Positions 7,077 through 41,137 of a stretch of DNA of 43,654 bases are shown here, in pieces (position 1 is the stretch's first letter; each line of letters starts with the position of its first letter). A model generated the notes under the pieces. The model was not told where the DNA came from. It made no database searches and saw nothing but the letters and a program-made list of their open reading frames with translations. Where the stretch lies: contig JALAGF010004047.1 of assembly GCA_030167865.1 (NCBI GenBank), forward strand, positions 1-43,654, written 5' to 3'. The DNA is from Craspedostauros australis (lineage: Eukaryota). The position numbers were made by a program, and so were the translations under genes.

Positions 7077-8612
7077 CTAGTTGCTATCCAATTCATCGTC
7101 GACATCGACTTGCTCTTTGGCCTTGCCGCTCCTTGGATCAATCTCCGGCCACCACAATGGCAGGTACGGCAAGTATCGCAGTTCAATGCGATCGTTGTCA
7201 CCCACAATGACCTTATTCAAGTGGGACCATCCAGCAGGAGCAGCTGCGTTCTGCTTCCTCCCGCTGGATGACGGCAGCAGCAACCCCAAACGATCCAATC
7301 GCATCTGCGCCAGCACCACATTCGTGCCTTCCGTTGGAACCGAGATGATATGGCCGATCGTCTTGCCATCATCGGGATCCACAAGGGCGTCACCGATCTT
7401 GACCTGCGTCGCGCAAAAGTCGAGCAGCGGATCGGCGAGCTCCTGCAATTTGAGGAGGCTGTCATCCTCGTCGTCACCCTGCGACGGTATCTGCCCTGTC
7501 ATCATTCCGACCATCGACCCGGCCGCTGCGATGGACAGCCTTGGAAGCGGGGACAAAGGCTTGCCCAACGTCATGTCCAGCACGTTGGATACGGACGAAG
7601 CTGAGGCATCCTCGCTGCCATGCTGTTGTTTCTGTTGTTGCTGCTGCTGCTGAATGCTGGATGCCACGATCCATGGCTGCGGTATCTGCATGTGTTTCGT
7701 CGTGAGGAAGAGCGGCACGATGCGCTTGCGGATGGCGCCGGTGTGCTGCACGCGCGCCGTCAGCTCCTGACCCAAGTAACACCCCTTCGAGAAGCTGACG
7801 GCATTCAAGAACTCCTGGTTGGATTCCAACGCGATCTTGCCCTGCAGCTCATCGGAACCTTCCGCGATGCCGGCGAGGCGGCGAATGAAATCGTACGTGC
7901 CGGGCGCGTCGGGAAATTCGGACGTCTTGATGAGGCTGTTGATGTCCATGACATCGGCGTCATCCTTCTTCCAGTTGAGCAAGCGCAGACCCAACGAAGG
8001 GTGGCGCGGATCCAATCCGGCGAGGTACCCATTGGGCGGCGTGACTATGCTGGCCTGCGTGCCGTAGATGGCATGCGACGAAACCTTCGATGTGACGTCC
8101 TCGATCTGAATCTTGCGCTGGCGCCGCGTGCGGAACATCTGCAGGTGTTGCAGGAATGCTGCAGCACCGCCGTCGCTAGTGCTGTTGTCAGTGCTGTCGT
8201 TCGTACCGTTGTCAGTGCTGTCGTCAGTGCTGCTGCTAGAGGCTGGCAGATCGATGAAGTATTGCTCCTCATCCACCTTCCACAGCAGCGAATCCGTGAG
8301 AATGCGCCCCTTGTTGTCGAGGAAGCACGCGGAACGCAGCGAATCCGTGAATCGCACCTCCAAGTCATCCTCGTGATCCCCGTTCATCTCTTCACGTGGT
8401 GGGACGGGATCAGCGGTGAGATCGCACGTCACCAGGCCCTGCAGGTAGGTCTGAGCGTTGGGACCGGAGACCGAGATGATGCGTCTGCCATTGCGCACGC
8501 CGTTGCTGCTGCTGCTGATCAGCTCGGCGGAGGACAGGGCCTCATGACCTCGCGACCACAAGCGCCCGAAGTTGCCGCGCAACGTGGCTGTGATCTTCGC
8601 TGTCGTCGACAT
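7077..8612 (-). CDS. IBA57: Mitochondrial Fe-S cluster assembly factor IBA57/CAF17 (YgfZ/GcvT family)
   Basis: Signature SFSKGCYLGQELTAR; ISVSGPNAQTYLQGLVTCD, FLDNKGRIL and DPRHPSLGLR; Arg/Thr-rich presequence-like N-terminus. Confidence 0.93.
   Translation of the reverse strand: MSTTAKITATLRGNFGRLWSRGHEALSSAELISSSSNGVRNGRRIISVSGPNAQTYLQGLVTCDLTADPVPPREEMNGDHEDDLEVRFTDSLRSACFLDNKGRILTDSLLWKVDEEQYFIDLPASSSSTDDSTDNGTNDSTDNSTSDGGAAAFLQHLQMFRTRRQRKIQIEDVTSKVSSHAIYGTQASIVTPPNGYLAGLDPRHPSLGLRLLNWKKDDADVMDINSLIKTSEFPDAPGTYDFIRRLAGIAEGSDELQGKIALESNQEFLNAVSFSKGCYLGQELTARVQHTGAIRKRIVPLFLTTKHMQIPQPWIVASSIQQQQQQQKQQHGSEDASASSVSNVLDMTLGKPLSPLPRLSIAAAGSMVGMMTGQIPSQGDDEDDSLLKLQELADPLLDFCATQVKIGDALVDPDDGKTIGHIISVPTEGTNVVLAQMRLDRLGLLLPSSSGRKQNAAAPAGWSHLNKVIVGDNDRIELRYLPYLPLWWPEIDPRSGKAKEQVDVDDELDSN
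8178..8235. repeat. Degenerate 12-nt repeat encoding an STD(D/N) insertion in IBA57
   Basis: GTGCTGTYGTCA-like units; translation STDDSTDNGTNDSTDNSTSD. Confidence 0.7.
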
Positions 8613-9453
8613 GCTTTGTTCAAATGCGCTTCTCTAGTTGGATTGCACTCGTGCGAATGTGCGTCTTGATTGTATTATAATAGTAGTATAAAGGAACCTC
8701 AGGAGAGCACATGGAATGGGATCGGGTCGAGGCAATGAGAATGGAAAGGGAACGAAGAGGAATGGGATGGATGCGTTTCGGTGCCTTGGATCCGCATCAC
8801 GTTTCGTCTGGTTTCGCCACGCACAAGATCAAGAAAGATGCGTTGTTGCGAAAGCCATCGACTCATGGGATCAAATCCGTCCAACGCAGCACGTTTGGGG
8901 GTCAATCGTGTGGAAGTGATTGAAGCGCTGCACACGATTTCTACGACCGAGAGGTCTCACGAGGTCCATTCCGGAATTATGAGAACGGTGACATCACAGA
9001 TGCCATCAAATCAAAACCGTCCACCAAAGACATCAAGAAGAAAAAGAATCTTGGGCGACCACGCACTCACGTTGACCGCGATCCACCCTCACATCAAGGA
9101 AGCAAGCGAGAAACGAAACTCCAACCAATGCAATTGCTCGTTCGGATACCCACGAACGCCGTTGTGCCAAAGAAAGACATCAAAGACGCTGACAACTGCG
9201 TTGCTGGGGATGCGAAACCTCCCATGGGAACAGATCGAGCTCCTGAAGATACGACCTCCTCCACTTCGCACAACAGACGACATCCATCACACAACGCAAA
9301 GCAACATCAGACTCAGCGTAACTTGCTACGTGTATATGGTAGTTCGACCTTCGAACATCGCTATCTGACTCTTCCTCGCTCGCTCTGCAAACTCTTGTCT
9401 TGGCATTGCCATCAACCCTGCCATCAACCCTGACATCAACCCTGGCATCTGCA
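8613..9453. promoter_or_regulatory. Divergent promoter region between IBA57 and the carrier gene
   Basis: Head-to-head arrangement; AT-rich TATTATAATAGTAGTATA patch near 8673-8690 just upstream of IBA57. Confidence 0.4.
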
Positions 9454-12400
9454 ATGATGGATGCATCGGTGAAACGAGATCGGATTGTGCTGCCGATGCC
9501 GACTTTTGTGTCCACCATCGTGATGGCTGCGTCCATCGTGGCCATCCACGCTGGTGGATTCGCACAGGCATTCTCGTTACCAGGATATGGAATGCATCAT
9601 CATGGCATCTTGTTGCATTCCCAACTACGCAGTGAACTACGCAGTGAACTACGCAGTGAACTACGCAGTGAACTACGCAGTGAACAGCGACTACGTGTAT
9701 CCCAGACGCGAACAAAGCCGTCCTCCCGACTTTGCGCATCAGAGGATGGTCACAATCAGCATGAGAGTCATTCAGGCGCAGATGCAGATGCAGATGTAGA
9801 GCCAGTTCCAATTCCGTCCATCGCCAACCTAGATCCACAAGCGATGCTGCAAAATGCCGATCGGTTGTGGAAGGCGGTCAACCTCCCTGTTGCAAATGGG
9901 GCGAGCAACGAGGGCATCATCAATGACAACGATTCATCGACCCATCACATTGACGTCCTTGTTGATGACCAGCACAACGAGCACAACGAGCACAACGAGC
10001 ACAACGATCACAACAAGAGTCAACAGGCGTACCAGCATGGCCAAAGACGGCTGCGACAGATCGGTAACCCCGCGGAGGACCAACCTGTCAGCCGCCGCAT
10101 CATGTTCGGAGCCACCTTGATCGGAGCTTCGTCCCTCCTCATGGCTGGATCGCCGCAACCCGCGAACGCTGAAACTCCCTCATCATCGCTGCTTCTCTCT
10201 CAGAACACGGATTTTGGAAAGCTGGGATGGGAGACCACGCCGATCAACAAACGCACAGGCGTCACCGTCTACGATGCCGAACAGGCCGGCTACAATCTCG
10301 GTTTCGTCACCTACCTTGCGCGCTTTCTGCTGGCCTTCGATCCGGACTGTCAGCGCTGGTGGTACGCCCGGGCCGCCGACATCCCGCGCACGGCCACCGT
10401 CGAGCAGGTCGAGAGGACGCGCCAGGCACAGTTCGGTGCATTCTCCGCATCCGTCGAGGTCGGTCTGCAGGAGTACCGATCCATCGCTTCGGGGCCTGCC
10501 AAACTCCTGCAGTCTCTGCTTGTGCGATACTGCCCGCCCACAGAAGTGGTGCAGCAGCAACGTCAGCAGCGCGGATTGCCACCGCTCACGCCGCAGCAGG
10601 AAGATAAGGACAGGCGCGACAAGCAGGAGGCCAAGCGCCAGATCGCCCTGCTCTTCGGATTGCTGGAGGGCAACCAACCCACGCAAGAGCTTGCCAAGCT
10701 TTTGGCAGACATTGACAATGGCACCATCACGTCCGTCAAAATTGACGATGGCGCAGGCTTCACCAGCAGCAATGCGCAGACCAACAAATTCGACGGATAC
10801 GACATCAAGCAGGGACCCAAGGTGGAGTTTGCGGAACCCCTCGCCACATCCGGCCAACGTGCCGAAGGTCGCGTTCGGATGGAACCGACGGGCAACCTGC
10901 TGCGCATCGATGTGGTGGATTCTGGCAATGGATACAACCCCAACAAGCTGCCGACGGTCACTGTCACGACCACGATGACGCAAAACGGCCATAGTCCTGC
11001 CACTGCCACTACTTCCCAGAGCCAAAGCGAAGATGACAACGACAAGCAGCAGCAACAACAACAGCAACAGTTGCAACAGCAGGACGAATCACAGTCACAA
11101 GCACGTCGCGTTGTGGCAACAGCAAGGGCCAACGTCATTCGCAACGGACCAAACAAGGGCAAGATTGCGTCCGTCCAACTTCTGGATGCTGGCGAAGGAT
11201 ACCAGGCCGGCGATCACATCCACGTCCTTATCGCACCGCCGGAATACGATGGTGCCACGGGTCAGAAGGCACAGTGGGGTGGCGTGCAGGCCACCGCCAG
11301 GGCGATCATGGAGTACAGTATCGATGGCATCGACATCGTGAATGGCGGGTCTGGATACGCCATCGGTCAATCCATGCCCATCAAGGTGCAAACGGCGGCA
11401 CTGTCTGACGAGATGGTCGAGATTGGGTTTGCGACGGCCGTGCCAACCCTGGGCGATGGCAGCAGCGCCAACTTCAAGTCCAACGGCGCGCAATCGCGGT
11501 ACATTAGCGCCACATCCTCCGACGGAACGTCCACCGCACCTGCGCCCATGTTCTCAACCTCCTTCGGCAAATCCAATCAATCGTCGCAGTTCCTGACACT
11601 GCTACCAGCCGGTTTGGGGTTGGAATACGATCCCAGCCTGCAGCGTTACGTCCTCTCTGCCACCGACGACTTTGCCGACCGCAACGCGGAGTGGTTGGCA
11701 ACGGCCTCCAACCGTCCGCTGGATCCCGAGTTCGGGCCACGCGGACGCTCCCCCATCGAACGTGAAGTCCAGCTCGATCCCTCCAGCTACATTCGGTTCT
11801 GCATCTCTGGCGCTGTTTGCTGCTCTGGTGTGCATCTCGTGGTGACGCCCATCGACGTAGTCAAGACCAAGATCCAGACGGATCCGCAGAATTACCCAGG
11901 CGCATTGCCGGGCTTCCAAAAGCTGTTGGAGGAACGCGGCTTGGGCGGATTCTTCGCCGGCTGGGTGCCCACCACCGTCGGTTGGTTCGTGTGGGGCGCC
12001 TTCACATATTCCCTCACGGAGTCGCTGCGGCGTTTGATGAAGGCCGAGGCCGGGCCGCTGGCAGGATCGTTGGAGGTGCCCATCGTGCTGACTGCAGCAG
12101 CTGTCGGAGCATTCTTCGGTGTCTTCCTGCTGTGTCCGTTCGAGGCCGTACGGATCCGATCAGTGTCGCAGCCGGACTACGCGCCCAACCCCTTCGCCAT
12201 CACGGCGCGCATGGTCAAGGAGGAAGGCACCTTGTCGCTGTTCAACGCGGTGCCGCCGTTGCTGCTGAAGGAAGTCCCGTTCGCGATGGCCAAGTTCAGC
12301 ACGTTCGCAGTGGCCACGCGGTTGCTGTTCGAGGCGTTCCCTGCCACGCAAGAGGACGTGCGCCTTTCCTTGCTCGTCAGCCTCACTGGCGGTGCCATCG

Positions 12401-12693
12401 GCGGCATGGTGGCCGCTATCGTCAGCAATCCAGGCGATGCCACCGTGAGCGAAATGAAGAAATCGAAGACGGAGCTGAGCGCGTTGGGTGCCGCCAAGCA
12501 GCTTGTCGAGACGGGCGGCCTGCAGAACCTGATGCGCGGATTGCCGCTGCGCATGGCGTTCTATCCGTTGGTGGTGAGCCTGCAGTTTCTGGTGTACGAC
12601 AGCGTCCGCATCTCGCTGGGCATCGGATCCGATGACCTCAAGGTGTATTTGGATGTCCTGGGTGGTGCTCTGAGGGATGGTGGGGTGGCATAG
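9454..12693 (+). CDS. Phosphate-carrier-type mitochondrial carrier family protein with a long N-terminal extension, predicted plastid-targeted
   Basis: C-terminal ~300 aa has three MCF repeats (TPIDVVKTKIQ, CPFEAVRIRSV, SNPGDATVS) and the PiC/MIR1-like GAVCCSGVH. N-terminus is a signal peptide plus AQA-FSL. Start is ATG 9454 or 9496. Confidence 0.85.
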   Translation: MMDASVKRDRIVLPMPTFVSTIVMAASIVAIHAGGFAQAFSLPGYGMHHHGILLHSQLRSELRSELRSELRSELRSEQRLRVSQTRTKPSSRLCASEDGHNQHESHSGADADADVEPVPIPSIANLDPQAMLQNADRLWKAVNLPVANGASNEGIINDNDSSTHHIDVLVDDQHNEHNEHNEHNDHNKSQQAYQHGQRRLRQIGNPAEDQPVSRRIMFGATLIGASSLLMAGSPQPANAETPSSSLLLSQNTDFGKLGWETTPINKRTGVTVYDAEQAGYNLGFVTYLARFLLAFDPDCQRWWYARAADIPRTATVEQVERTRQAQFGAFSASVEVGLQEYRSIASGPAKLLQSLLVRYCPPTEVVQQQRQQRGLPPLTPQQEDKDRRDKQEAKRQIALLFGLLEGNQPTQELAKLLADIDNGTITSVKIDDGAGFTSSNAQTNKFDGYDIKQGPKVEFAEPLATSGQRAEGRVRMEPTGNLLRIDVVDSGNGYNPNKLPTVTVTTTMTQNGHSPATATTSQSQSEDDNDKQQQQQQQQLQQQDESQSQARRVVATARANVIRNGPNKGKIASVQLLDAGEGYQAGDHIHVLIAPPEYDGATGQKAQWGGVQATARAIMEYSIDGIDIVNGGSGYAIGQSMPIKVQTAALSDEMVEIGFATAVPTLGDGSSANFKSNGAQSRYISATSSDGTSTAPAPMFSTSFGKSNQSSQFLTLLPAGLGLEYDPSLQRYVLSATDDFADRNAEWLATASNRPLDPEFGPRGRSPIEREVQLDPSSYIRFCISGAVCCSGVHLVVTPIDVVKTKIQTDPQNYPGALPGFQKLLEERGLGGFFAGWVPTTVGWFVWGAFTYSLTESLRRLMKAEAGPLAGSLEVPIVLTAAAVGAFFGVFLLCPFEAVRIRSVSQPDYAPNPFAITARMVKEEGTLSLFNAVPPLLLKEVPFAMAKFSTFAVATRLLFEAFPATQEDVRLSLLVSLTGGAIGGMVAAIVSNPGDATVSEMKKSKTELSALGAAKQLVETGGLQNLMRGLPLRMAFYPLVVSLQFLVYDSVRISLGIGSDDLKVYLDVLGGALRDGGVA
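9623..9682 (+). repeat. (AACTACGCAGTG)x5 encoding LRSE repeats in the putative transit peptide
   Basis: Five exact 12-nt copies read directly. Confidence 0.95.
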
Positions 12694-13252: not shown

Positions 13253-14332
13253 TTAGTTTCTTCGGATGTGGTGGCCCTCTGGTGTTCCCCACCAGCGGAT
13301 GACGGATCCGCGCTTGTTCTTGTCCACTCGGACATCCTCGCAGTAAGTGAACTTGTAACCAATGAAGCTTCCTGCGCCGATAACGGCAATGACGCAGGTT
13401 GCAATGACAGGGTATGTGGCTGGGTCAGAAACCCAGGCCTTCTGTCCTGCGGCCTTGATCTTCGTTGCCTGGATGAATGCCGGGTCCGTCTTGGTGACGG
13501 AGGACATCAGGCGGCTGTTGGTGGCCGTGCTGCGGGTGGAGGCACTGTCATGTGAATGCGTGGCAAACGGAAAGTAGAATAGCATAGAGTATGAATCGAG
13601 GATTCGTTGTGTGAGAAAGCAGTGATCGGTTGCCTGTTGCCAATTCATTCTTCCACTCGCCAGCCCTTTGTTTGGCTCATCATTTGATCCACCCTCTCAC
13701 ATCTGTTGTGCCGATCGAGGCAACCAAGACTTCCCGAACAAATGTGCAATGAAGTGACATTTTCTTTGGCACACAATACGAATTCTGAATGCGGCGTGTT
13801 GGGGTGCATTGAAGTTGTGTGATGTCTGAGGGAGTGACGGACATCGGAAACGATTCTGCTGTGGAATCATTTCTGCAAACAAATGATTCTTCATCGGCTG
13901 TTTGCATTCGCTCCTGCGTCCCTTGTCCCTTTGTGCATGTTCTGCTTCGTCCATCGTCTCGATGACGGTCGAGGCTGCGCCGATGCATTGAAGGGGACTG
14001 CCGACATCATGGCATGCCATGGAAGGCCTCATGCTCAATCATGACCTTCACATGCTGCTGATGCTTTCGACGTTCGGTTGAAGTTGCCGATGGGATCATC
14101 GCTTCCGCAGCATTGGAATGCAAGAGAGAGAGAGAGTGTGTGTGTGACCATCACGGTCCATTCTCAGAGTCTTCGATGATGAGCACAAAGAGAATGCTGC
14201 TGCTCTCCTGAACTCCATTCCACTTCACATGACATCACAAGACAACCAACAGAACCACGGACCATCCAATCGCGTTGCGATAGGTGGAACTCACCGAGCC
14301 AACGAAGAAGCGGAGAGGCGAAGAGCATTCAT
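13253..14332 (-). CDS. NDUFA4/B12D-like small mitochondrial membrane protein, 2 exons (14332-14295, 13544-13253), 109 aa
   Basis: Exon 2 has WVSDPATYPVI, one TM helix and EDVRVDKNKR, the B12D/NDUFA4 pattern. Exon 1 MNALRLSASSLAR ends at a GTGAGT donor (14294) and joins in phase to the CAG acceptor (13545), giving a presequence-like MNALRLSASSLARASTRSTATNSRLM. Confidence 0.75.
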
Positions 14333-15338: not shown

Positions 15339-18300
15339 TCAGCTCGGCGGATTGGCCGATTCATATTCCTGCTTCAGCATCTTGACGATGTGCTCACCCT
15401 TGCTCTCCCATTCCGACCGATTCATCATGGCGTAGTTGATAAACTCGTCGCTGGAGACGCCAAACACGCCGCACTCGCTCAGCTTCTTCGCCAACGGGAT
15501 GATGTAGTTGTCGTAGAACCACAGCTCTCCTCTGTACCATCCCAACGAGGGGTCCTTGTCCAGCCTGCCATCCTTGAAGGCCCTGTACATTTCGTTGAAC
15601 AAGCGCCTGTTCCACTTCTGGTAGACGTGCCAATGCTGCATGGTATGGCTCACATCGGCAGCCTGCAGAATGTGCTCGATCACGATGGTCGCCTTCAGGT
15701 CCATTCGGTTGCTCACGCTATCCTCCGGTGTTGTGCTGGTGGTGGTGGAGAGGTTGTCGCTCTCCGTTTCGTCGCCGCTGGATTGCATCTTTGCCAAATT
15801 CAAGTTGTCCAGAGATGTCCTCCCTTCCTGGGCGCCGTTGTTGGATCGCGATGAACCCTTGGACGATTGGATCATGGCATTGCTGGCGGTGTTGTTGCTG
15901 TCGTTATTGCCATTCTGTTCGTTGGCGGGATTGGTGATACTGAGAGCCGTCGCCGAGGTGCTTTCGCTCTTGCCCAGATTGCCATGCTCGGACGTGGACA
16001 TGGATTCTGGGAACGCCTTCGACCAGCGGTTGTTGCGCAGCTTCTTCAATTCCGGATCGAAGATGTCAGTGGCCATGACGATGTTGACGAGCAGCTGTCT
16101 AAAGCGCTTCTTGGAGTCCTGATCTTCGAAGAGGCACGCGCGCAGTTCCTTGTACTGCAAGTCCATGAGCAATCCCCATGCCAGATCGAGCGAGTTTTGT
16201 TCAGCGACAGACTTGCCACCATACATTTGTGCCATCTCATCCTTCTCCTTGATGAGCTGCGAGTTCGGCACTCCAGGATGGTCAACGTCATGAATCAATG
16301 CCGCGAAGACACAGGCAAAGTGAGTGAGTGGATCGGAGGTGATTCCGTACGTGTAGTTGTGAAGCTGTGCGGCGACCTGAGCGTTGGACTCGCGATGTCC
16401 GATGTTCAGATCATCAGCCGCGACAATCCTCATGAGGATCTTGTTGGTGGACATCGTGACGTGACTCGCGTGGTCGTAGTTGTGGAATGGATTGTCCCGG
16501 TACGACGATGCGATCTTGGTGACGTAATCACGTAGTTGTGCCTCCACCTTGGGCTTCAGCTGGATGTCATTGGGGTCAATAACAGCCTGGATTGCGACGT
16601 TGTCCTGGAAGTGCGGGAGGTGGATCGCTTCGCGGTACTCTTCGCGTGGGTTGCCACAGCCAAAGTCGTATTCCTCCTGGCTGGCTGCCTTGCGTCGTCC
16701 TCCGCCACCGATGCTGATTTTCGATCGGCGTTTGCGTTGCTCTTTGGAATTCATTTGATGTGCAACGACGCGCTTAAGAAGCACCATCAGCAGATCCACA
16801 TTCCATTCCACAAGCCGCTGGAAGTGAGGTGTCAGCCTGGGCCCGCGCTTGTTCAGCTTGGTGCTGGTTTGCCTTTCCTCTGCGAATTGGCTGCGCGTGT
16901 GCATTGAGACTGGCGCGCTCTCCACTGATGCCACCGAATGCGTTCCACCGACCCTTGGCATCACCCAGAATCTGCATCGCCAGGGCATTAGATACACGAT
17001 ACGAGTGTGCATAGTTGCAGAGTAGCAGTAGCATTGGTTGTTTTCGTTGAGTGTGGCAGGGATGATGATCAGAGTTTGAAATGAAGTTAGACACAGGGTG
17101 TGTGTGTGAGAGAGAGATGGAGAGAAGGCAGCGATTGGCGCATAGAGGCGCGTTCCGGCATGCAAGACAACGCAAATCGTGGCAAAGAAAGTGAATCGAC
17201 CATGATTGGTCCGGATCGGAGAAGAGTACTGGTAGACACTCAGATGCCACCCTCCAACAAACCAAAGAAAACACGATACAGCAACATCACCACCACCATC
17301 AACAACGACCACAGCAACTGCATGATGCACTTACGTCTGGATGGTGCCCTTGCCCTTGGCCTCGATGAGATCTTCACGTGTGCGGATCCATTGCGACTTG
17401 CCATGATCCACCAGCAGGTTCGCCGTCTCCTGCGAGCACTGAATGCGGTTGGGCACCCCTGTACTTTCCATGCGGCTGGCTGTGTTGACCGTGTCACCAA
17501 AGAGTTGGAATCTCGACTTCTGTCCACGCAGGACACCTGCTGTGACGGGACCGGAGTGCAGACCAATTCTCATGGCCAGATCGGTGGTGTCGGGACCGAG
17601 CTCCACCTCCAGATCTCGCGTGATCTGCGCCATCTTGTGCAGGGCGGCGGCCGCGAACTTGGCCATGATGAGGGCGTGCTCTGGCTGCGGATCTGGCAGT
17701 CCCGTGACGGCCAGGTAGCTGTCGCCGATGGTCTCCACCTTGAAGACGCCCTTGCGGTCCGCGAGCTTGTCGAAGGCACCGTAGATGGATTCGAGGAGGC
17801 GGAAGACCTGCGATGGTTCTCGCGTGGATGACCACGCGGTGAAGCCGGCGATGTCTGCGAAGAGCACGGTGGCCTTGGGGAAGAGATCGGCGATTGGTTT
17901 GGACTGGAGTGGGTTCTCCGGCGCGGCACTCTGCATGCCGTAGTCGGCACCAACGCTGTTGACGAAGCTCTTGAGCTTGGCTCGCTGCGTGGCGAATGGG
18001 CCGATGGTGATCTGGTCCGTGTTGAAGACCGACTCCTGGGCACCGTTGGCGGCGGCGTTTGGATCTGCGTTGCCGTCATCGAGCAGACGCTTGCGCACGT
18101 TCTTGGGGAAGAGGGAAGACACGATGGCGTGGCTCTTCGTGGCCGTTTTCATGACGACCTTCTGGCGGCGTTCGACGATGCAGTCATATCCGAGGAAGAT
18201 GGCGCTCGTGACGACGAAGGCGACGGCCACCAAAACGGTGTAGATGGCGGGGAGGTTGCTGAAGTACCGATCCCTCATGGTGTTCGTGGGGTAGATATGC

Positions 18301-19907
18301 AGGCTGGACGGGCAGCGGTCTTCGTTGAAGGTGATGTCCCCGACCCCTATGGTCTCCTCCTGGAAGAAGACGTCGAGATCGAACGATCGGGCCATGATGT
18401 CGAACGCGCCGTCATGATGGTCACCGGCTTGGAAGTAGGTGACGTCGCCGTCCACGACCTGGAAGGTGAAGGCCTGGCCGCACTGATTCTGCAGGATGAT
18501 CTGGATGTCGTTGGCGGCTTGTGGCAGCTGTCGCAGTTGCATGTAGGAATCCCAGGCGAAGTTTGTGCTGACGATCCCCAGGAAGCGTTGCAGTTTGCCG
18601 TTGCTGTCAATCTCGTTGAGCGGGTAGATGATGCTGCTGCTGGGCAGGCCGGCAAAGAGCTCGAGGCTATTCGGGACGTTGCTTTCGAGGATGACGACCT
18701 TGGACAAAGTGAGCTGATTCGATTCCACCGTGGTGCGGTGGTCCTCCGCCAGCTCCGGGCCGTTGAGTACGTCGAAATTCACCAACACATCAACAGGCGA
18801 ATGCTGCCAAACCGGAAGGTAAGGCCCAGTTCCTTCAGGCACGGTTCTGGCGTTGCTGGTTCCGTTGCTGGTCCATATGCTGTTGCTGATGACAAACTGC
18901 GGCGTTCCGCCGGATGGGCTCTGCAAGGATCTCTGCGTCAGTTGTTGGTCGTGTTCATGTTGCTGTTGTCGTGACTGATGGTGGTTGTGGTTGCGGTTGC
19001 TGTGTTGACTACGTTGCTGGTTGGGCCGGTGCTGATGCGACGATATCGCTTCGCCAACATCCCTAGCGCCAACCCTAGCGCCAACACTATTGGCAACACT
19101 GCTGGCATCCAATAGCCGCCTGTTGTTGGAATCATCGTCATGAACGGCGAAGTTCCATTGATCCTGCCGCGTCCTGTTCTCGAACTTCAAACCATCGTCC
19201 ATCCACCCGTAGTTCTGCACCACGTAGGCCTCGTAGCTCGATCTCTCCGATTCTTGAACGTAAGGCAGAAAGGCGATGGAGGTGAAGATGCCCGACTTGC
19301 GCGTGGCCGCCGCCCGTCGCTCAAAGTCCGGGATCGTAACGCGTGGCCACGTCGCATTGGTGGCCTTGGCGTGGCTGAGGATGGCGACCGCCATGTTGTC
19401 GACGGCCGCGATGCCTTCGGCCATGTGCGTGCGCACGGCCTCGAGGATCGTGTTGGAATGATCCGCGAAGCGCAGTTCGAACTCGTCGCGTTCAGCCTCG
19501 CGCGTGGAGTAGTAGATGGCGGCGCTGACGCCGATGGCGGCCGTCAGCAAGGAAGCGAAGACGAAGATGCGCAGCCAGCCCACCTGCCGCGTCTCGTAGG
19601 TCGCGAGCTCGGGCTCGTCCTCCGGTGCGGGCGATTGGCCTGGGAAGAGAGCACCGTTGCTCTCGCCCATGGAGGAGGTGGCGTCGTACTTCATCGACGA
19701 GTCGGCTGAGAAGTCAGAGGAGTCGTCGCGGTCTTCGCTGTTGTGGTCCTTGTCTTCTTCATCAACGTCGTCCAAGATGCTTCGCGATGTGAGGAAGGTG
19801 CCAGGCCTCTGATGTTGCTGATGGTGGTGTTGCCGATGTTGCTCCAGTTCGTACCGATGGCCAGGCTGGGCCTGCTCCTGGTATTGCATAGATGCGGATG
19901 CCACCAT
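15339..19907 (-). CDS. Receptor-type nucleotidyl (guanylyl-like) cyclase / cNMP phosphodiesterase fusion, copy A; exons 19907-17335 and 16971-15339, 1401 aa
   Basis: Two TM helices flank a CHASE-like region (WPRVTIPDFE, YLPVWQHSP). Cyclase motifs VLFADIAGFT, KVETIGD, GLHSGPV, RFQLFGDTVNTASRMES. PDE motifs FHNYDHASHV, IHDVDHPG, MATD, QAADVSH. A GTAAGT..CAG phase-2 intron restores KGKGTIQTFW. Confidence 0.92.
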
Positions 19908-21859: not shown

Positions 21860-24800
21860 TCACTGTTGATCCTGGTTGGCCTTCTCGCGCCACTCTTTGA
21901 CGACGGCTGCGCCACGACGAGACCATTCCTCGCGGTTCATCTTGGCGTATTCCAACAGCTCTTCACCAGCGCCCACCAATTCATCACAATCTCTCAGTCT
22001 CTTCGTCAATGGAATGACCACCTCGTCCAGGAACTTCAGTTCGTGGCCGTACCAATCGACGTACGGATCCGTGTCTCGACGGCCGCCCTCGAACGCGACA
22101 CGCTGCTCCTCCAGCAGACGGTGGTTCCATTTCTGGTACACCAGCCAGTGCTGGGTGGCGTGGCTCACCTTGCCAGCTTGAAGCACGGATTCGAGAACGA
22201 GGCTGCCCTTCTCCACGATCTCGGCGCGGATGTTGCGACTGCTGCGCTTTGGGATCTTGCCTGTGAAACTGACGCGGGTCACCGGCGTCGTCGATATAGG
22301 GAATGCCTTCTCCCACCGCTCCTGCTGGCTTGCCAACGATCCTTCGTCGTCAGTATCCATCGCCATGACGAGGCTGACGAGGAGCTGTCGGAATGACGAC
22401 CTCGTGGTGTTGTTGTCGTCACCGAGCAGGCACTTGCGCAGATCGTCGTACCGGCTCTCCATCAGCAGGCCCCAGCCAAACTTCAACGCGTTCTGCTGCA
22501 TGGCGCCCCTCGTGCCGAAGGTGATCGCCAGCTCGTGATTCTCGCGCACGAGCTGTGAGTTGGACACTCCGGGATGGTCGACGTCATGGATCAGAGCCGC
22601 GAACATGCAGGCAAAGTGAGACAGCGGGTCAGTGACGATCTCCTGAACGCGGCGGCAGCGATCGGTGCAGTGGGATCCGGCATCAGCCTCGAGGATCGAA
22701 TGCAATCGCTCGATGATCTTGTTGGTGGACATGGCGACATGGCTGGCATGAGCAAAGTTGTGGAAACAATTCTCCTGCCTGTGCGCGAATGCGATTGTCA
22801 TGATCAGATCCTTCAGCTGGTTGGCGAGGTTCGGTTGCAGCTGGATGGAATCGTCGTTTCTGCGCGAGTACGCGGACTCGGCACTGCCCTTGCCGTGCTG
22901 TCGCGACCCATCGCGAGCACCGGCTTTGTCGTTGGTGTCCGCGCTGCAGACCTGGAAATAGCTTTCGTCGTTGTGAAAGCTGGCATGATCAAGTGTGGCC
23001 GAGCTCAGCACGCTCGGTAGATTCATCTGACGTTGTATCGCATTCTTCGAAACGATGCGCTTCAGAAGGGTGGACATCAAATCGTTGTTCCAATCGATGA
23101 GCCTCTGGAAGCGCGGCGATAGCAAGCTCTGCGTTTCTTGCACCAGCGGGTCGGTGAGCGGCGACGAGGCGAACGTGTCGAAGGATCGGCATGATCCGAA
23201 GTTGCGCAGTGCCGGTTCGGTACTCCTTCCCTTGCCTTTGCACTTGACCCAGTATCTGTAACATGCACAACAGTCGGCATCAGCAGCAGGAAGCAGCACC
23301 GGCAGCAAACAAGGACATCCGAATGGACGCAAGTCATCGAATGCACGAGTGACGATGAATGGTTGCGATCGAGAGAATGCACAGAAGATAAATTCAACAG
23401 CGAGCAGGGCAGAGCAGAGCAGAGAATGGCACGTTAGTCTCGATGAAACATGGGATGGAGAAAACGTCAAGTGTTCGGACACAATCAGATCAAGACACTT
23501 CAAGCACAGCAAAGATCAAACCAATCCAACATCACACGTCAAGCAAGCAAGCAATGAAGCAATCGGCCAGATGGCGACAACGTACGTCTGGATCGTCCCC
23601 TTGCCCTTGGCATGAATCATATCCTCCCTGGGCATCAGCCAGTGAGACTTCCCGTTGGAGATGAGCTGGTCCGCCGTCTGCTGCGAGCACTGGATGCGCC
23701 TGGGCTTGCCCGTGCTCTCCATCCTGCTGGCCGTGTTGACGGTGTCACCAAAGAGCTGGAAGCGTGACTTTTGGCCTCTCAGAACGCCTGCCGTGACTGG
23801 GCCAGAATGTAACCCGAACCTCATCGAGAGCTCGTTGGTGTCAGGACCCAGCTTGACTTCGAGCTGCTGCGTGATTTCTGCGAGTTTGAACATCACATCC
23901 GTCGCAAACTTGGCCATGATGACGGCGTGCTCTGGCTGTGGATCCGGAAGTCCCGCGACGGCCAGGTAGCAATCACCGATGGTCTCCACCTTGAATACGG
24001 ATCTGCGATCCGCCAGCGTGTCAAAGCTACCGTACAGAGCTTCCAGCAGCGTGAAGACTTGCGATGGTTGGCGTGACGATGACCACGCCGTGAAGCCAAC
24101 GATGTCGGCGAACATCACCGTGGTGTTGGGAAAGAGCTCTGCGATGGGCTGAGTCTTCTCGCAAGCCTCTTCGGCAGCAGCCGTCACATCTGTTCTGGTG
24201 TGATCGGTGCGGGACATGAGAAATCGTTGTATGCGGTTACCTCCAGGTTGGGTGAAAGACGTGCGCACTGGCCCCGATGCCTGGCCTCCGCTCTTCCCTT
24301 GGCTGACGACGGTGCTGTCATCGATCATTTGATCCCGCACCCGTTTGGGGAACAGCGACGAAACGATCGCGTGCGTCTTCAATGCAGTCCTCATGACAAC
24401 CTGCTGCCTTCGTTCGACGAAGCAATTGTATCCTGCAAACACGAGGTACGTCATGAGGAAGACCATCAGCACCACGCCAGTGTAGACGTACGGCGCGGAT
24501 GTGAGGTATCGTCGCCTCATCTTCTTCGTGGGGTAGATGTTGATGTGGAATGGGCAGGCTTCGGTGTTGAGCTTCACGTCTCCGAAGCCGATCTTGTTCT
24601 CAACGAGCAGGTTCGTGAGTGAGAATCCCGACTCCATGTCGTTGAAGTCACGATCATGCAGGTCGCCTGGATCAACGAAGAGAATGTCACCCTCGATCAC
24701 CCTGAAGGTGTAAGATTGACCGCACGTATTCTGAAGGATCACGAGGATATCGTTTGCCTCCTTCGGGAGCTGCTTCACCTGCATGTAGGCATCCCAGAAG

Positions 24801-26131
24801 AAGTTGGCGTTGATAGTGCCCACAGTCCTGACGGATTCGACGACGTCCCCATCCTCGTTCGTGACGTGTGTCCGTTTCAGCAACGGATGGATGATAAAGC
24901 TGGAGGGCACGTCGGGCTGTCTTTGCCCAGTTTCGGTGCCGATGATCTTGGGAATGAACGTTGCCTTGGATATGTAGGTCCGCTGCGTTTCGATTGGGAC
25001 CAACAGCTCCAGCGCAGTGCTATCAGTGAGGAGATCATAGTTGACGAAGGTATCGACCGGGGATACGTGCCACACAGGAAGAAAAGGTTCCGCGTCGGAT
25101 GGCTTCCGCACGATGTCATTGCCATCAAAGCCCCAGATGTTACTGAACATGAAATCTTCATCGATCCGCCTCGCATCACGGGACGACGATTCGACCCTTC
25201 CAGACGTCTCATCGCGTGGCGTGTCAAGATCTTCGCCATCTGCTGGCCCCGGCTTGAAGTTTCCAAACTTCCAGTCCGACTGATTCGTCTCGATCTCGAA
25301 TGCCTCGCCCTGCGCGAACCATTCTCTGTGGCTTGAGGTGAAGTTCTCATACGCCGTTCTCTCGGAGTCTTCGACCAGAGCGGAGATGTAGAAGCTGGTG
25401 AAGCTGCCGAGAAGTCGAGTTGTTGCGGCACGCCGGTGAAAGTCTGAGACGTAGACCATCGGCCAGTCGTTGTCGCTGACACTAACATCGGCCATGATGG
25501 AGACCGCGAAGTTATCGACGGCAGAAAGCGCAGTGGTCACGTGGGTGATGTAGGACTCGATGATGGTGGCGGAATGTTCGTTGAAGCGCAACTCGAACTC
25601 ATCCTCCTCGTTTTGTCGGATCGATCGGAACGTGATGATGCTGAGGATGGTCGTTGCCACCAGCAGCGAAAAGACGACGATGATGCGGAGCCATCCCACC
25701 TGCTTGGTTTCCTGTTGAGCCAGGACCGGCTCGTCGTTGATGTTCTTGCGTGCGTTGTCGCTGTTAAGTCCTGCCGACGATCCGTCATGGTTTGCCGACA
25801 GCGAGGACTGATCGACCGACCGACGGTCATCCAGATGGGAGTGGGTGTCCGGCTCCTCCTCTTCCTGCTTCCCTTGCTCTTCGCGCAGGTTGGACATGTG
25901 GGTGGACGCGCTGGTCTTGCTGGAGAAGCTGAACGTGCTTGATTCTTCGTTGCCAACACTAACCTGCAGCCACGAGGCAGAGGCATCGCCGGGATTCGCG
26001 CTCGCGTTCTCGTTGTCATGTGTCCCATCGGTTCCAATCGTCTGCTTGTCAAGCCTTGCCGATCGGTTGGCGCTCATGCTCCCGAGGGTCCTCGCTGACG
26101 ACGATGCTACGAGCACCGACCTGGAAGACAT
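21860..26131 (-). CDS. Receptor-type cyclase / PDE fusion, copy B (degenerate PDE); exons 26131-23586 and 23255-21860, 1313 aa
   Basis: Same architecture as copy A: VMFADIVGFT, KVETIGD, RFQLFGDTVNTASRMES; PDE FHNFAHASHV and IHDVDHPG. A GTACGT..CAG intron at the identical position restores KGKGTIQTYW. Confidence 0.9.
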
Positions 26132-38140: not shown

Positions 38141-41137
38141 TCAGGTCGAAGAGTACTTCAACTGGACACCGAATCTCTTGGTCTTCCCACACCCGCCACA
38201 GTGAATACCCGTGTCCGCCAGCGCCTTCGAAGCGGTGGACTTACCGATCGGCATCGCGATGTATGGCGCAAGGTGGGTCTCATCAGCTTCTGCTTCTGCT
38301 GTGGCTGCATTTCTGGCTTCCTCCTCGATTGCTTCTAGCTTCTTTTCGATCTTGGCTTCGACTTTTGCTAGGATTTCTTGAAGCACCCGTTTTTGATCTT
38401 GCGGCGCAATGTACTTGCGTACCATTTCTTCAATCTCTTCCCTGAAGGCAGCCTTGATCACGTCGTAGCGTTCTCTGCCCAATGCATCGGCGACAGCACG
38501 ATCACCAGCAACTCTATCTCTTTCGCTTTCGGCCGCATCAGCATCGGCCTGGCTCATCGTTTGATCCACAAGGCTTTCTGGTCCGCTCGCTACGCAATAC
38601 ACGCGATCATTGCCAAATGGAATTCGGAGAAGCTCGTGAAAGATCCCATCCTTGGTGTTGCGGATGTCTTCGTTGGAAATCTGCTCACCGGTTGTGTAAC
38701 CCTTTGCCTGGATGCAGATGGTGACGAGCTTGAGGTTCTTCCACACGATCTTGTTGCCGACCTCCTCCTTTTGAGCAACCACGACGGACACGTATCCGTC
38801 TGCCAAGTTGCTGTTGCCTTCTGCGACGCTTGCGATTGGAGGGTGGAATGCTTGCGTCCCTTCCTCCAGTGTCGGTTCTGCGATGATGGCGTTTCGCAGG
38901 TCCCAGAGTCCCGTGAGGTAGTCCTTGTCAATGGTCAGCGTTGCTTCGTCACTATGCAGGAGAGGGGCATACTTCCGGAGTTCATCAGTGTTGTTGGGGG
39001 GATCAGGATTGTTGCGTTCGACCATCCAACCTTTCAGGCCATCCCAGTAGGTTCGGTTCTGTCGCTGCTGCACTTGTTGCTGCTGCTGCTGCTGTGGTTG
39101 TGTTCGCCCCAATGACAGCTGCATGGGTGACTTCTGAAGGTACATGCCCTTCATGGCAAACTCTGATGGAAAGGCAACAGGGTACCATCCGCGAAGCCCT
39201 TCCCACGATTCTGCAATGTCCTTGTCCACGAATGGAGATGTGACAGCATCACCATCTCTCACTTCGGATGCGTACATCGCAGCGCCATCCTCGAGCATCG
39301 ATTTCAGATCCTTTCGATGTGTTGCCTCAACGGTCGTGGCTGCTGCTGTCACATTGGAGAGGAATTGGACTGCGAGCGCTTCATATGCGAATGGTGTCGT
39401 CTCCAAAGCTTCATCGGGATGTGCCAGGACTTCTCCACCAGCAATCATCCAGCTACAGAGCCGCTGCATGGCAGGATCCATGAGGAAAGGGTACATCTCA
39501 ACTCTCCCGTCCTCCTGTTCCGCCATCATGGAGAGATTCGCGAATGATGCGATCGTCAGGAGCCCATACTTGCCAATGAGATCGTGTATCTCGACACGGT
39601 TCTCACCAAAGTGTTGAAAGTGGATGGAATCGTTCAGAACCTTCTCTCGGATGGAATGGGCATCCTCACCAGGTGACACCTTGATCGTTTGCTGGAAGAG
39701 GAGGGCAGCGTAAGCGCTTGCCACAACCTGCTGGCACGCGTGTGGGGACTTCCACAAGGACTCCATGCCGCTGGTTGTGCAGAAGTCTTCGAAAACAGTC
39801 GAGATGATCTTGACTTGATGGCGGGGATCACGATATGAGAAGTTTGTGGTCGCAAGCTGGAACACCAAGGCAGAAGTCATTCTTGAGTTGTGGTGGACGA
39901 TGTCGCTGAGGAGGGGATATTCTGGAAGCTGTTGAAAGGGTGGAAATTTGTCCCCAATATCTCGATACTCTCGGCAGAGAACGTTGTAGACATCTTCAAC
40001 CTTTCTTTGGGCAATTGGTTGGAGTTGCTCAAAGTTGTCTGGCAAGCTTCCTTGCGTGTCACTCTGGAAGCATGTACCTGCAATGGAGAACACCACCCGC
40101 AGTGATTCCTTCTGCGTGTTGATCCACTTGATCTCATCATGACAGTTTCCGCTTCCGTTTGGGTTGTTGCATCCCGTCATGATGAATGCGGCAAGATCTT
40201 GACCAAGATCTTTGTAGTCGCGGATGATCTCATTGATGAGGTTGGGTTGGGATCCTGCTTCATCGATGGCGACGACGATTCGCACCATGTCTTCCTTGGT
40301 GTTGCGGTGCTTGATCATGTCAGCGATCTGGACAAAAAGATCTCGGATGCTCTTGTCTTGATCCACGAGCTTGTGAATACTTTTCTTGAGACTGATTCGT
40401 GCTTCACGTCGTCGAGCAGTGCTTCTCTCAGCTGTAGGAATGTCCTTGTCGACAACCAGTTGGATGGAAAAGGCAGCATCTCTTGAGTACGCGCTCGCTG
40501 CGAGTTCGGCTGTCTTCCCGCTCCCGCTAGCAGAGCAGTACAGCAGCACCAGATCACTGTCTGCCTTTTCCATGTACAGCTGCTTAGGCGCTCTTCCATG
40601 TCTGGCTTGATGTCGGAACTGAGGGTTGCCAATGGAGAAGACCTGGCAAGAATCATACCAATCGCCATGTCTGGTGCAAACTTTCACTTGATGGAGTGTT
40701 GGTGTTGTCTTTTCACGGATGGCATTGTGCAACTTGTTGCTGATGGCATCTTGGAGTGATGCTGGTGAGCTATCGTTGAGGGGTGCGATTCCTGTGAATG
40801 ATTGGCGAGCAAACTCGATGATTTTGGAGCCTGCTGAAATGATAGCAGTGAGATAACAGCCTTCACGTGTCAAATGTTGTTGAAGGTTCCTTATTGTCCG
40901 TCCCGCATCCCAGAACCAGGCATTTCCGAATACCGATTCCCACAAAGGAGGTGCTCCTGTGCCAGATGCGTTGAGGTGAGGCTTGGCGGCAACTGCTGCG
41001 GGTACGCTGGCTTGCTTTTCGTCGCGTGAAGTGCCGGAAGAGAAACTCAGAGGGGGAGGTTTGTGCTCGCTGTCCTCTGCAATTTTTTTGCCGCTCTTGT
41101 GCTTGTTGTTGTTCTTGCGCTTGTTCCTCCTCCCCAT
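38141..41137 (-). CDS. P-loop NTPase plus putative PD-(D/E)XK nuclease (Crinkler/RHS 'CR'-like), about 998 aa
   Basis: Walker A LLYCSASGSGKT (~40511-40537), Walker B IVVAIDEAG (IVVAIDE at ~40259-40279), VVFSIAGT strand, then NLADG and ICIQAKGY (38702-38800). Start at MGRRNKRK (41137); 5' and 3' exon structure uncertain. Confidence 0.7.
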   Translation of the reverse strand: MGRRNKRKNNNKHKSGKKIAEDSEHKPPPLSFSSGTSRDEKQASVPAAVAAKPHLNASGTGAPPLWESVFGNAWFWDAGRTIRNLQQHLTREGCYLTAIISAGSKIIEFARQSFTGIAPLNDSSPASLQDAISNKLHNAIREKTTPTLHQVKVCTRHGDWYDSCQVFSIGNPQFRHQARHGRAPKQLYMEKADSDLVLLYCSASGSGKTAELAASAYSRDAAFSIQLVVDKDIPTAERSTARRREARISLKKSIHKLVDQDKSIRDLFVQIADMIKHRNTKEDMVRIVVAIDEAGSQPNLINEIIRDYKDLGQDLAAFIMTGCNNPNGSGNCHDEIKWINTQKESLRVVFSIAGTCFQSDTQGSLPDNFEQLQPIAQRKVEDVYNVLCREYRDIGDKFPPFQQLPEYPLLSDIVHHNSRMTSALVFQLATTNFSYRDPRHQVKIISTVFEDFCTTSGMESLWKSPHACQQVVASAYAALLFQQTIKVSPGEDAHSIREKVLNDSIHFQHFGENRVEIHDLIGKYGLLTIASFANLSMMAEQEDGRVEMYPFLMDPAMQRLCSWMIAGGEVLAHPDEALETTPFAYEALAVQFLSNVTAAATTVEATHRKDLKSMLEDGAAMYASEVRDGDAVTSPFVDKDIAESWEGLRGWYPVAFPSEFAMKGMYLQKSPMQLSLGRTQPQQQQQQQVQQRQNRTYWDGLKGWMVERNNPDPPNNTDELRKYAPLLHSDEATLTIDKDYLTGLWDLRNAIIAEPTLEEGTQAFHPPIASVAEGNSNLADGYVSVVVAQKEEVGNKIVWKNLKLVTICIQAKGYTTGEQISNEDIRNTKDGIFHELLRIPFGNDRVYCVASGPESLVDQTMSQADADAAESERDRVAGDRAVADALGRERYDVIKAAFREEIEEMVRKYIAPQDQKRVLQEILAKVEAKIEKKLEAIEEEARNAATAEAEADETHLAPYIAMPIGKSTASKALADTGIHCGGCGKTKRFGVQLKYSST

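Follow-up and report, generated by a model that had tools for sequence, protein, structure and literature searches.

The gene examined here lies at positions 9454..12693 of the forward (+) strand in a 43,654-nucleotide stretch of the genome of Craspedostauros australis (contig JALAGF010004047.1 of assembly GCA_030167865.1; "the window" refers to this whole stretch). It is a diatom nuclear gene consisting of one uninterrupted open reading frame (ORF) of 1079 amino acids (aa), which encodes, from the N-terminus, an endoplasmic reticulum (ER)-type signal peptide, a transit-peptide-like stretch, an acidic spacer, a twin-arginine translocation (Tat)-type element, a long soluble module and a complete carrier of the mitochondrial carrier family (MCF) related to the phosphate carrier (PiC). 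An original prediction, made from the letters of the DNA alone, had named the ORF, the junction of AQA with FSL, the twin arginine (RR) with its A-x-A motif, a soluble part of about 500 aa and the three-repeat carrier, and each of these was found where it had been placed. The same prediction could match the protein to no characterised one, and our searches likewise found none. The reading that we regard as somewhat probable, from comparisons of sequences and predicted structures, is that of a Tat-routed thylakoid carrier, which would derive from PiC, bear a lumenal module and move a substrate other than canonical phosphate.

The reading frame stays open over 9391-9453 with no ATG earlier than 9454, and a 12-bp tandem repeat (3.6 copies, 9407-9449) lies immediately 5' of the start codon. 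When family sequences were searched against the window with tblastn, a single frame was followed over the whole gene. Antisense and alternative-frame ORFs that overlap the gene were rejected as real genes, none of the five having a Pfam match. Between aa 235 and 781 there is no 19-residue stretch with a mean Kyte-Doolittle (KD) hydropathy of at least 1.2, and the approximately 530 residues from 240 to 771 are therefore taken to be soluble.

Presequence and twin-arginine element

The predicted ER-type signal peptide (aa 1-39; 9454..9570, +) ends in AQA with phenylalanine at position +1 (codon 9571), the junction translating as ...HAGGFAQA followed by FSL. Its hydrophobic core (aa 11-29) has a mean KD of 2.01, and a helix is predicted over aa 17-40. 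A crude test for such signals, namely a scripted heuristic that looks for a hydrophobic core and a junction of [ASGC] followed by [FWYL], was passed by 90 of the 125 family models that start with Met, the +1 residue being most often F (63 models), and the predicted ER signal appears typical of the family; most of the failures look like truncated gene models. The following stretch (aa 40-95; 9571..9738, +) has a net charge of +5, is mostly coil with low confidence in the structural model, and would, judging from its composition and position, act as a transit peptide. An RSEL tandem repeat (12 bp, 5.2 copies, 9623-9685, +) lies inside it. Plant lumen-targeting domains typically bear an acidic 'A domain' ahead of the twin arginine (PMC2132503, section 17), and at the equivalent position the window protein has an acidic, His-rich spacer (aa 96-212; 9739..10089, +) with a net charge of -15, which precedes the RR element and contains an NEH tandem repeat (9 bp, 4.9 copies, 9971-10014, +). 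Repeat expansion seems to be how the presequence lengthens, and with 212 residues ahead of RR it stands near the long extreme of the family.

A short conserved helix motif, DPQAMLQNADRLWKAV, also lies inside the acidic spacer (aa 126-141; 9829-9876, +), where an isolated helix is predicted over aa 128-142. The pattern [LIVMF]xx.ADxx[hydrophobic] was present in 49 of 125 relatives compared with 40 of 2500 shuffles, at a median of 30 residues 5' of RR (range 16-83, with 83 in the window protein). A conserved element within a presequence is unusual; through this one a stromal intermediate may be recognised or bound by a chaperone.

Within plastids the Tat translocase is known only from thylakoids, and tatC is plastid-encoded in diatoms. 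The candidate lumen-targeting signal of the window protein occupies aa 213-239 (10090..10170, +), with S-R-R, a 17-residue core and P-x-P-A-N-A ahead of E240. Positions 10090-10173 translate as SRRIMFGATLIGASSLLMAGSPQPANAE, and 10090-10170 as SRRIMFGATLIGASSLLMAGSPQPANA followed by E, i.e. S-R-R-I-M-F…A-N-A and then E. The core is moderately hydrophobic (mean KD 1.7, compared with values of up to 2.38 for the carrier helices). The twin arginine is a determinant of the plant thylakoid delta-pH/Tat route and, among the features set out in the same source (PMC2132503), the window protein has the twin Arg, the moderately hydrophobic H region, the A-x-A motif and the preceding acidic region.

The element is conserved across the family. 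Among 145 members with at least 70 residues upstream of the mature-domain anchor (the window protein included), RR followed by at least 13 uncharged residues was found in 141, and A-x-A ahead of the anchor in 118 of these 141 RR-bearing members, with a consensus of [S/N/T]-R-R-[L/I/M]-F-[F/M/L]. The RR pattern occurred in 126 of 2240 shuffled upstream segments (5.6%) and in 43 of 632 windows taken from the mature part (6.8%). A count anchored on the N-terminal domain (N-domain) of the module gave 69/70, 7/7, 15/19 and 10/16 in four branches of the family (again with the window protein included), the last two being the R-type and short-form branches described below. A few members also match Tat-signal models of bacteria independently: PF10518 (E=2.9e-5) and TIGR01409 (6e-4) are each matched by single proteins, and TIGR02811 by three.

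Soluble module and algal family

The soluble module opens with the N-domain (aa 240-440; 10171..10773, +), which is putatively lumenal and has an all-helical core at about aa 273-421. In an AlphaFold2 model built from a 122-row alignment (mean predicted local distance difference test score, pLDDT, of 80; predicted template-modelling score of 0.77), the module consists of this N-domain with eight helices (pLDDT >90 over ~aa 273-421), a beta-rich region and a small hairpin, while a poly-Q insertion and the ends have low confidence. The N-domain is well conserved, with a mean top-residue frequency of about 0.8. No family for the soluble module, the N-domain included, was found in Pfam or NCBIfam; a sequence-profile search of the PDB with the module returned carriers only, together with an insignificant tailspike match (E=0.019); and Foldseek comparison of the module with the PDB gave no match at E<=0.001 (best 0.37). 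In the ESM Atlas the module reached 0.81, which is at noise level, and the N-domain alone had no usable match. A limited scan of prokaryotic genomes with two peptide patterns matched 11 stretches, none of which was confirmed, and this is weak evidence of absence. The N-domain is a helical domain without a detectable relative.

Four 'GxGY' beta-repeat units follow (aa 441-700; 10774..11553, +). The model predicts them with confidence as beta-rich, and they are mutually homologous (hhalign probability 85-96%, E 5.8e-6 to 1.5e-9), although unit 1 of the window protein is degenerate (G-x-G-F), and a poly-Q-rich insertion (aa ~516-560; 10999-11133, +) separates units 2 and 3. Pfam contains no model of the repeat. 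In PHROG, the window's region matched eight families at E<=0.01, the best being phrog_2885, a baseplate wedge subunit (1.3e-7), with further matches to phrog_719 (9.6e-7) and to the virion structural protein phrog_19630 (6.6e-6), while a cleaner copy from Nitzschia (P0009) matched nine families, the best at 1.6e-9. Foldseek comparison with the predicted phage structures of BFVD gave nine matches at E<=0.001 (best 1.6e-5). The cyanophage baseplate wedge and virion proteins (phrog_2885, 719, 701 and 19630) are built of the same unit of ~40-47 residues, ...G-x-I-x-x-I-x-I...G-x-G-Y...P-x-V-x-I..., and the "baseplate wedge initiator" of cyanophage S-CAM8 has six tandem units with the shared signature at a spacing of 39-43 residues. 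Unlike the repeat arrays of the T4-like cyanophages, the algal protein has only four units, flanked by a eukaryotic helical domain on one side and a carrier on the other. In tblastn searches of phage genomes, the GxGY region of the window protein itself gave no match and P0009 a marginal one (E=8e-3); as direct BLAST similarity is marginal, the link to phages is one of remote homology. On the profile and predicted-structure matches, the GxGY units belong to a repeat of tailed-phage structural proteins, chiefly those of marine cyanophages.

The linker (aa 701-771; 11554..11766, +) contains a conserved LLPxGxGLEYD…RYxL hairpin, which is placed at aa 721-736 in the model, and a PLDPEFGPRGRSPIERE motif just before carrier helix 1; the chromerids and other ochrophytes of the family also have linker motifs of the FGP[RI]G type. 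Missing from the window protein is the ~90-aa 'PPPLTARxNMNDP…GGCIGRACYD' block that usually comes after unit 4 in its closest form of relatives, termed type A (~11400-11600, aa ~656-712). This block bears a conserved C-x-x-x-C pair and is absent from relative P0122 as well. The possibility that it is hidden in another frame or in an intron was rejected, since tblastn finds no trace of it. With its degenerate unit 1, poly-Q insertion and missing block, the window copy of the module is a somewhat eroded member of the family.

With the soluble part alone as query, 243 proteins were retrieved at E<=1e-3, and PF00153 (Mito_carr) was present in 90 of the 120 matches listed for the module, those with names all being diatoms. 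The fusions of module and carrier include ORFs from MMETSP transcripts that are marked as complete, as well as proteins of several annotated genomes, in agreement with the single gene that had been proposed. An exhaustive profile-free search gave 4031 matches, 254 of them at E<=1e-30. The diatom members come from Cylindrotheca, Nitzschia, Pseudo-nitzschia, Fistulifera, Mayamaea, Amphora, Attheya, Leptocylindrus and Phaeodactylum, those from other ochrophytes from Chrysoparadoxa, Phaeothamnion, Tribonema, Laminaria, Chattonella and a pelagophyte, and the non-ochrophyte members from a pavlovophyte haptophyte (Pavlovales) and the chromerids Vitrella and Chromera; in the dinoflagellate Symbiodinium the match is at the level of the carrier only. 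An N-domain profile built from type-A diatoms only matched every other branch except Symbiodinium (E=6e-12 to 8e-32) and none of four canonical PiC-type carriers.

The family has at least three forms. Type A, to which the window protein belongs, is among the long forms that bear GxGY repeats; the R-type proteins (~1000-1160 aa) have Arg at the equivalent of the essential His33 of PiC, and their carrier is interrupted by a long acidic insertion; and the short forms (~650 aa) consist of RR signal, N-domain and carrier without GxGY repeats. Diatoms contain R-type and short-form paralogues, including relatives P0239, P0411, P0413 and P0427. In a maximum-likelihood tree of 75 carrier domains (midpoint root, no non-PiC outgroup), the window protein fell inside a 20-row diatom clade (100/100), the R-type proteins formed a clade of 15 rows (100/99), and the canonical Cyanidium-type clade was sister to the short-form clade (100/98). 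When 'shorter' proteins were sought with the carrier domain, most matches were fragments from this family rather than ordinary phosphate carriers, and several neighbours of 'ordinary length' proved to be fragments or non-canonical; a "phosphate carrier" of Rhizochromulina, for example, reads HQAACVEGF at the binding-site columns defined below. This is a conserved algal family, catalogued but uncharacterised.

Carrier domain and its binding site

The six-helix, three-repeat carrier of PiC ancestry spans aa 772-1062 (11767..12639, +) and is followed by a conserved C-terminal tail (DDLKVYLDVLGGAL…, aa 1063-1079) and the stop codon (12640..12693, +). A tail of the DL.LYLDVL type, predicted as a helix with low confidence, was found in 97 of 212 long MCF-bearing relatives. 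PF00153 matched the window protein over three stretches (E=5.7e-36), as a three-repeat carrier should, and matched all 46 aligned relatives too. The model of the carrier has pLDDT 82-97 over aa 776-1054, and Foldseek with the predicted carrier gave 16 matches at E<=0.001, every one listed being an MCF protein (UCP1, 8hbv_A, E=3.9e-10, TM-score 0.75 on target; ADP/ATP carriers, TM-scores 0.60-0.71). The carrier is 35% identical over 286 aa (E=1e-53) to Cyanidium protein P0395, which has every canonical PiC residue, whereas solved non-PiC carriers scored at E>=2.9e-8. By this comparison of sequences, the carrier descends from PiC.

With PiC proteins (SLC25A3, MIR1/PIC2, PHT3) the window protein shares the three repeats, the gates including the unusual third, and the equivalents of His33, Gln47, Leu127 and Gly268; it differs from them in a 770-residue N-extension that bears signals of plastid and Tat type and a folded module, in the replacement of the four proposed phosphate contacts and of Asp124, and in a net charge near zero compared with about +9, and it is not expected to reside in mitochondria. 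Its gate motifs are P-D-K on helix 1 (H1), P-E-R on H3, T-E-R on H2 and Y-D-R on H6; H4 has F-A-T without an acidic residue, and H5 has P-D-V, the hydrophobic replacement also seen in canonical PiC. Among type A proteins, PxDxxK is present on H1 in 106/108 and PxExxR on H3 in 99/108, and H5 is again hydrophobic as in canonical PiC. As these gate networks are kept, the carrier most likely still works by alternating access.

For yeast PIC2, PMC7924939 (section 8) proposes phosphate contacts at Gln86, Lys90, Gln176 and Met275, each Ala mutant of which lost arsenate sensitivity, and pairs Asp124 with Gln176. These positions were located in the family with P0395 as a ruler, on which spacings of 14, 4, 3 and 7 fit the PIC2 numbering. 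Where canonical PiC reads H-Q-Q-K-D-L-Q-G-M, the window protein reads H-Q-W-T-V-L-E-G-F: the equivalents of His33, Gln47, Leu127 and Gly268 are kept, and all four contacts are replaced (W, T, E and F for Gln86, Lys90, Gln176 and Met275), with V at Asp124. The full canonical pattern was found in 4 of 200 near-complete carriers, all with short N-termini. Among the 153 carriers with an N-extension of at least 250 aa (the long relatives), Lys90, Met275 and Asp124 each occurred in none; the Gln176 column held Glu in 110 and Gln in 30; and 122 kept no contact while 31 kept one. The same proteins had Gln47 and Gly268 in 153/153, H in 115 and R in 35 at His33, and L, I or V in 120 at Leu127. The pattern HQW[ST]..EGF dominates type A, the site varying among branches and being conserved inside each, and a Cys near the His33 equivalent (C789) is nearly invariant. 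The net charge of the carrier is 0 in the window protein, with medians of -2 in type A (n=108), -1 in short forms (n=39) and -6 in R-type proteins (n=36) compared with +9 in canonical carriers (n=4), and the carriers of the family have kept a loop asymmetry of +3 in the matrix-equivalent loops and -3 on the side of the termini. The shift in charge would fit a carrier that is no longer bound by the demands which the mitochondrial inner membrane places on charge.

The original prediction of a phosphate carrier is therefore supported as to ancestry, given the similarity to P0395, and is not supported as to substrate: with all four proposed contacts replaced in the window protein and the lysine kept by none of the 153 long relatives, the name "phosphate carrier" becomes doubtful. 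We consider it rather unlikely that the protein is a thylakoid phosphate/H+ carrier which bears an accessory domain in the lumen and plays the part that PHT4;1 has in plants, moving phosphate between lumen and stroma. This explanation can draw on the PiC ancestry and the four retained equivalents, on the automated 'SLC25 phosphate transporter 3' labels of many relatives and the label given to the Phaeodactylum orthologue in a preprint (see below), and on the reported absence of PHT4 and TAAC from diatoms (TAAC and PHT4;1 by name, in a review); with the termini on the acidic side, moreover, a PiC mechanism would export lumenal phosphate. It has to contend with the absence of Lys90, Met275 and Asp124 from every long relative, with the loss of PIC2 arsenate sensitivity in each of Q86A, K90A, Q176A and M275A, and with a site that has lost its sole positive contact and gained a glutamate, which is unfavourable for an anion.

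Copper would be less strained as a candidate substrate than phosphate, because PIC2 mutants K90A, M275A and L127A kept sensitivity to silver, a proxy for copper, and that paper (PMC7924939) states that phosphate transport is more easily lost than copper transport. A thylakoid carrier of copper or another metal cation, descended from the copper-competent PIC2/SLC25A3 side, would also suit the His in 115/153 long relatives, the nearly invariant C789 and the Glu in 110/153. We nevertheless judge it improbable, since Q86A and Q176A reduced the silver sensitivity of PIC2 and both positions are changed here, Arg replaces the essential His in 35/153, no confident mapping was reached for the other Cys residues to which a role in PIC2 is ascribed, and no lumenal copper demand common to all the algae concerned was identified here.

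For the thylakoid carrier with a lumenal module that we favour, a central site without the lysine and both glutamines, and with a new glutamate and aromatics, points to a substrate other than phosphate bound in the canonical mode. From the conserved gates and the rebuilt site we conclude that this is probably a working carrier with a changed substrate, and we are inclined to see its cargo in cations, metals or solutes that bear an amine, exchanged or moved together with protons. Amino-acid carriers typically have a basic-acidic pair at the helix-4 contact point, and the K-E pair of the family hints at an amine-bearing substrate, which we offer as a lead.

Proposed routing, alternative locations and neighbouring genes

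In the sequence of events that we propose, the ER signal peptide with F at +1 and the transit-like stretch would take the precursor across the four plastid envelope membranes, and the N-terminal module of ~530 residues would fold in the stroma. The Tat translocase would then export the folded module to the lumen, where cleavage after A-N-A would leave a mature N-terminus at about E240, and the six carrier helices would come to lie in the thylakoid membrane with both termini lumenal. Such a topology is expected of an MCF protein if the lumen replaces the intermembrane space and is consistent with the loop-charge asymmetry; the orientation to the proton gradient would be that of the mitochondrial carriers, whose termini lie on the acidic side. 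The thylakoid carrier would move its non-canonical-phosphate substrate, possibly coupled to protons, and the module, at the lumen-facing mouth, would most likely regulate (gate), dock, tether or position it. The thylakoid location, topology, Tat dependence, cleavage site, class of substrate and role of the module are all deduced from sequence features and models.

In the dual Sec-Tat class of membrane proteins, Sec-inserted helices precede an internal Tat element. Papers on Tat-dependent membrane proteins (tail-anchored, Rieske and dual Sec-Tat; PMC10924467, PMC5449189, PMC3471235) describe a similar combination of RR signal, folded extracytoplasmic domain and membrane anchoring, usually with one transmembrane helix, and in the dual Sec-Tat proteins the Sec route acts first and hands over to Tat (PMC5449189); here, by contrast, the Tat signal and folded domain come first and six helices come after. 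Precedents in the plant thylakoid membrane are TAAC/PAPST1, a carrier of the mitochondrial family, and PHT4;1, which transports phosphate there (review). Of these, TAAC carries nucleotides and falls in another MCF subfamily, and PHT4;1 stands outside the MCF. To our knowledge, neither has a Tat signal or a large lumenal domain.

The orthologue in Phaeodactylum tricornutum is Phatr3_J11866 (1057 aa), which is ~48-49% identical to the window protein and has the same architecture (...TSRRILFASSLIAAG..., N-domain, GxGY units, carrier). In the supplements of a plastid-transporter atlas it is entered as "Mitochondrial carrier protein", is called chloroplast by HECTAR and belongs to the chloroplast-associated PhaeoNet blue module; MitoFates gives it no presequence, which argues against a mitochondrial location, and its best Arabidopsis match is AT2G17270. 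The main text of the atlas does not mention it. Our relative P0054 equals Phatr3_J11866 apart from one residue in the printed N-terminus and has the contact signature HQWSSLEGF. As to AT2G17270, we take it to be a mitochondrial phosphate transporter of the PHT3 type. A preprint on diatom MCF proteins infers Phatr3_J11866 to be a phosphate transporter, co-expressed with genes of photosynthesis and the Calvin cycle, and reports plastid-proteome enrichment (with the identifier printed as J11886). The gene is also named among the transporter genes from a CRISPR screen in a high-light context, and as a candidate for a malate shuttle. As the binding site matches no known specificity, caution is advisable towards both the annotation "phosphate transporter" and the malate-shuttle proposal. 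The words "thylakoid", "twin" and "lumen" are absent from the text of the preprint, and our literature search found no description of a Tat signal on a carrier of the mitochondrial family, nor of the lumenal module. It appears that none of these features (Tat element, helical domain, phage-type repeats, rebuilt site) has been described before.

Several observations weigh against a Tat-routed thylakoid carrier with a changed substrate. Within the signal, RR+2 is M and RR+3 is F in the window protein, whereas F stands at RR+2 in 104 of the 141 RR-bearing members, and RR is less conserved in the short-form (10/16) and R-type (15/19) branches, for which truncated gene models may be part of the explanation. 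The contact positions were mapped by spacing and motif context with no direct alignment to yeast PIC2, and are themselves only 'proposed' in the source paper (PMC7924939). Experimental localisation of family members reaches only the level of 'plastid', and the ASAFind call for Phatr3_J11866 in the atlas is 'Other'. In the full-length model pLDDT falls below 50 at the linker (aa 751-772) and at the C-terminal tail, so that the model lends no support to any particular docking of the module on the carrier. Lastly, our search found no precedent for a six-helix carrier that follows a Tat-exported domain.

An alternative is a carrier in the inner envelope of the plastid, with the RR segment as an uncleaved anchor or some other sorting element and the module in an inter-membrane space or the stroma. 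The experimental evidence goes no further than 'plastid-enriched', plastid MCF proteins are commonly located in the envelope, and a similar RR element is found in an unrelated protein, MCFc (Phatr3_J46742), which its authors place at the envelope. MCFc is a diatom plastid MCF protein with a bipartite presequence; its printed sequence (PMC9546453, supplement) has a signal peptide ending …TALS followed by F… and then …VSRRFFLGTAVSTGIVLAGSNIANA followed by VDEE…, the ...VSRRFFLGTAVSTGIVLAGSNIANA... being a Tat-like element after the signal peptide. At ~40 kDa, without a large module and belonging to another MCF subfamily (ADNT1/BAC1-like by structure), it was rejected as a candidate for being the same protein as that of the window. 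Its paper makes no mention of Tat, and the images show a homogeneous plastid-wide signal and co-localisation with PsbA. Tat-type routing of MCF proteins may be general in diatoms. The window protein itself has a full Tat layout (polar-RR-x-F, moderate core, helix-breaking Pro, AxA) with an acidic region ahead, and inside plastids the Tat translocase is known from thylakoids only; we therefore think an envelope carrier improbable, and a thylakoid location remains the preferred one.

Some proteins with the MCF fold have non-transport roles. The carrier could accordingly be dead for transport and serve as a membrane anchor for the module, whose repeats and helical domain would hold the structural or binding function; the binding site does differ from that of the ancestor and vary among branches, and the module is as conserved as many enzymes (~0.8 in the N-domain). 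We regard this as very unlikely, because the gate motifs, Gln47 and Gly268 are conserved in 153/153 long relatives or nearly so, and because residues of the site are conserved inside each branch, e.g. HQW[ST]..EGF in type A, which indicates selection on the binding site. That a gene for a secreted or lumenal protein and a carrier gene have been read as one ORF is hardly credible, for although the length is unusual for an MCF protein and the linker is in part poorly conserved and of low confidence, module and carrier are fused in 90 of the 120 relatives listed (complete MMETSP ORFs and annotated genomes among them), the gene follows a single frame in tblastn, conserved motifs span the junction up to helix 1, and no internal arrangement of Met plus signal lies ahead of the carrier.

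A wider proposal, which we put forward tentatively as possible rather than probable, is that algae with red-derived complex plastids send mitochondrial-type carriers to the thylakoid by means of a twin arginine, with the present family as the clearest case: a partly phage-derived domain of ~530 residues would be exported by Tat with the six helices following, the carrier would have gained a new specificity of value for fitness in high light, and MCFc would be a second, thylakoid case. Diatoms and their relatives account for a large share of marine photosynthesis, and few diatom thylakoid transporters have an assigned gene. If the Tat-routed carrier is real, it would be a candidate for an unassigned flux over the thylakoid membrane, the first case in which Tat exports a large folded domain and a six-helix carrier is then inserted, a mode of biogenesis of a polytopic membrane protein without described precedent, and an instance of a phage-type structural repeat recruited to a photosynthetic organelle.

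The neighbours of the gene are ordinary, unrelated nuclear genes, encoding acetyl-CoA-synthetase-like, signal recognition particle receptor beta, GCV_T-like and B12D/NDUFA4 proteins. The GCV_T-like protein (7077-8612, -) is a weak match with a poly-Q tract and low-complexity Asp/Ser/Thr runs, and the small B12D/NDUFA4-like protein lies at 13253-13648 (-). Further along, a 1123-aa ORF (38141-41512, -) matches no Pfam family, and the window contains no Rfam families or tRNAs. Two tandem pairs of cyclase and phosphodiesterase ORFs also lie near the gene: a two-ORF unit is duplicated in tandem on the - strand (15339-19907 and 21860-26131), each copy comprising a Guanylate_cyc ORF (17331-19907 and 23516-26131, -; Pfam) and then a PDEase_I ORF (15339-17012 and 21860-23077, -; Pfam). 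A cyclase-phosphodiesterase gene is probably present here in two copies, both of them split by an intron or a frame change.

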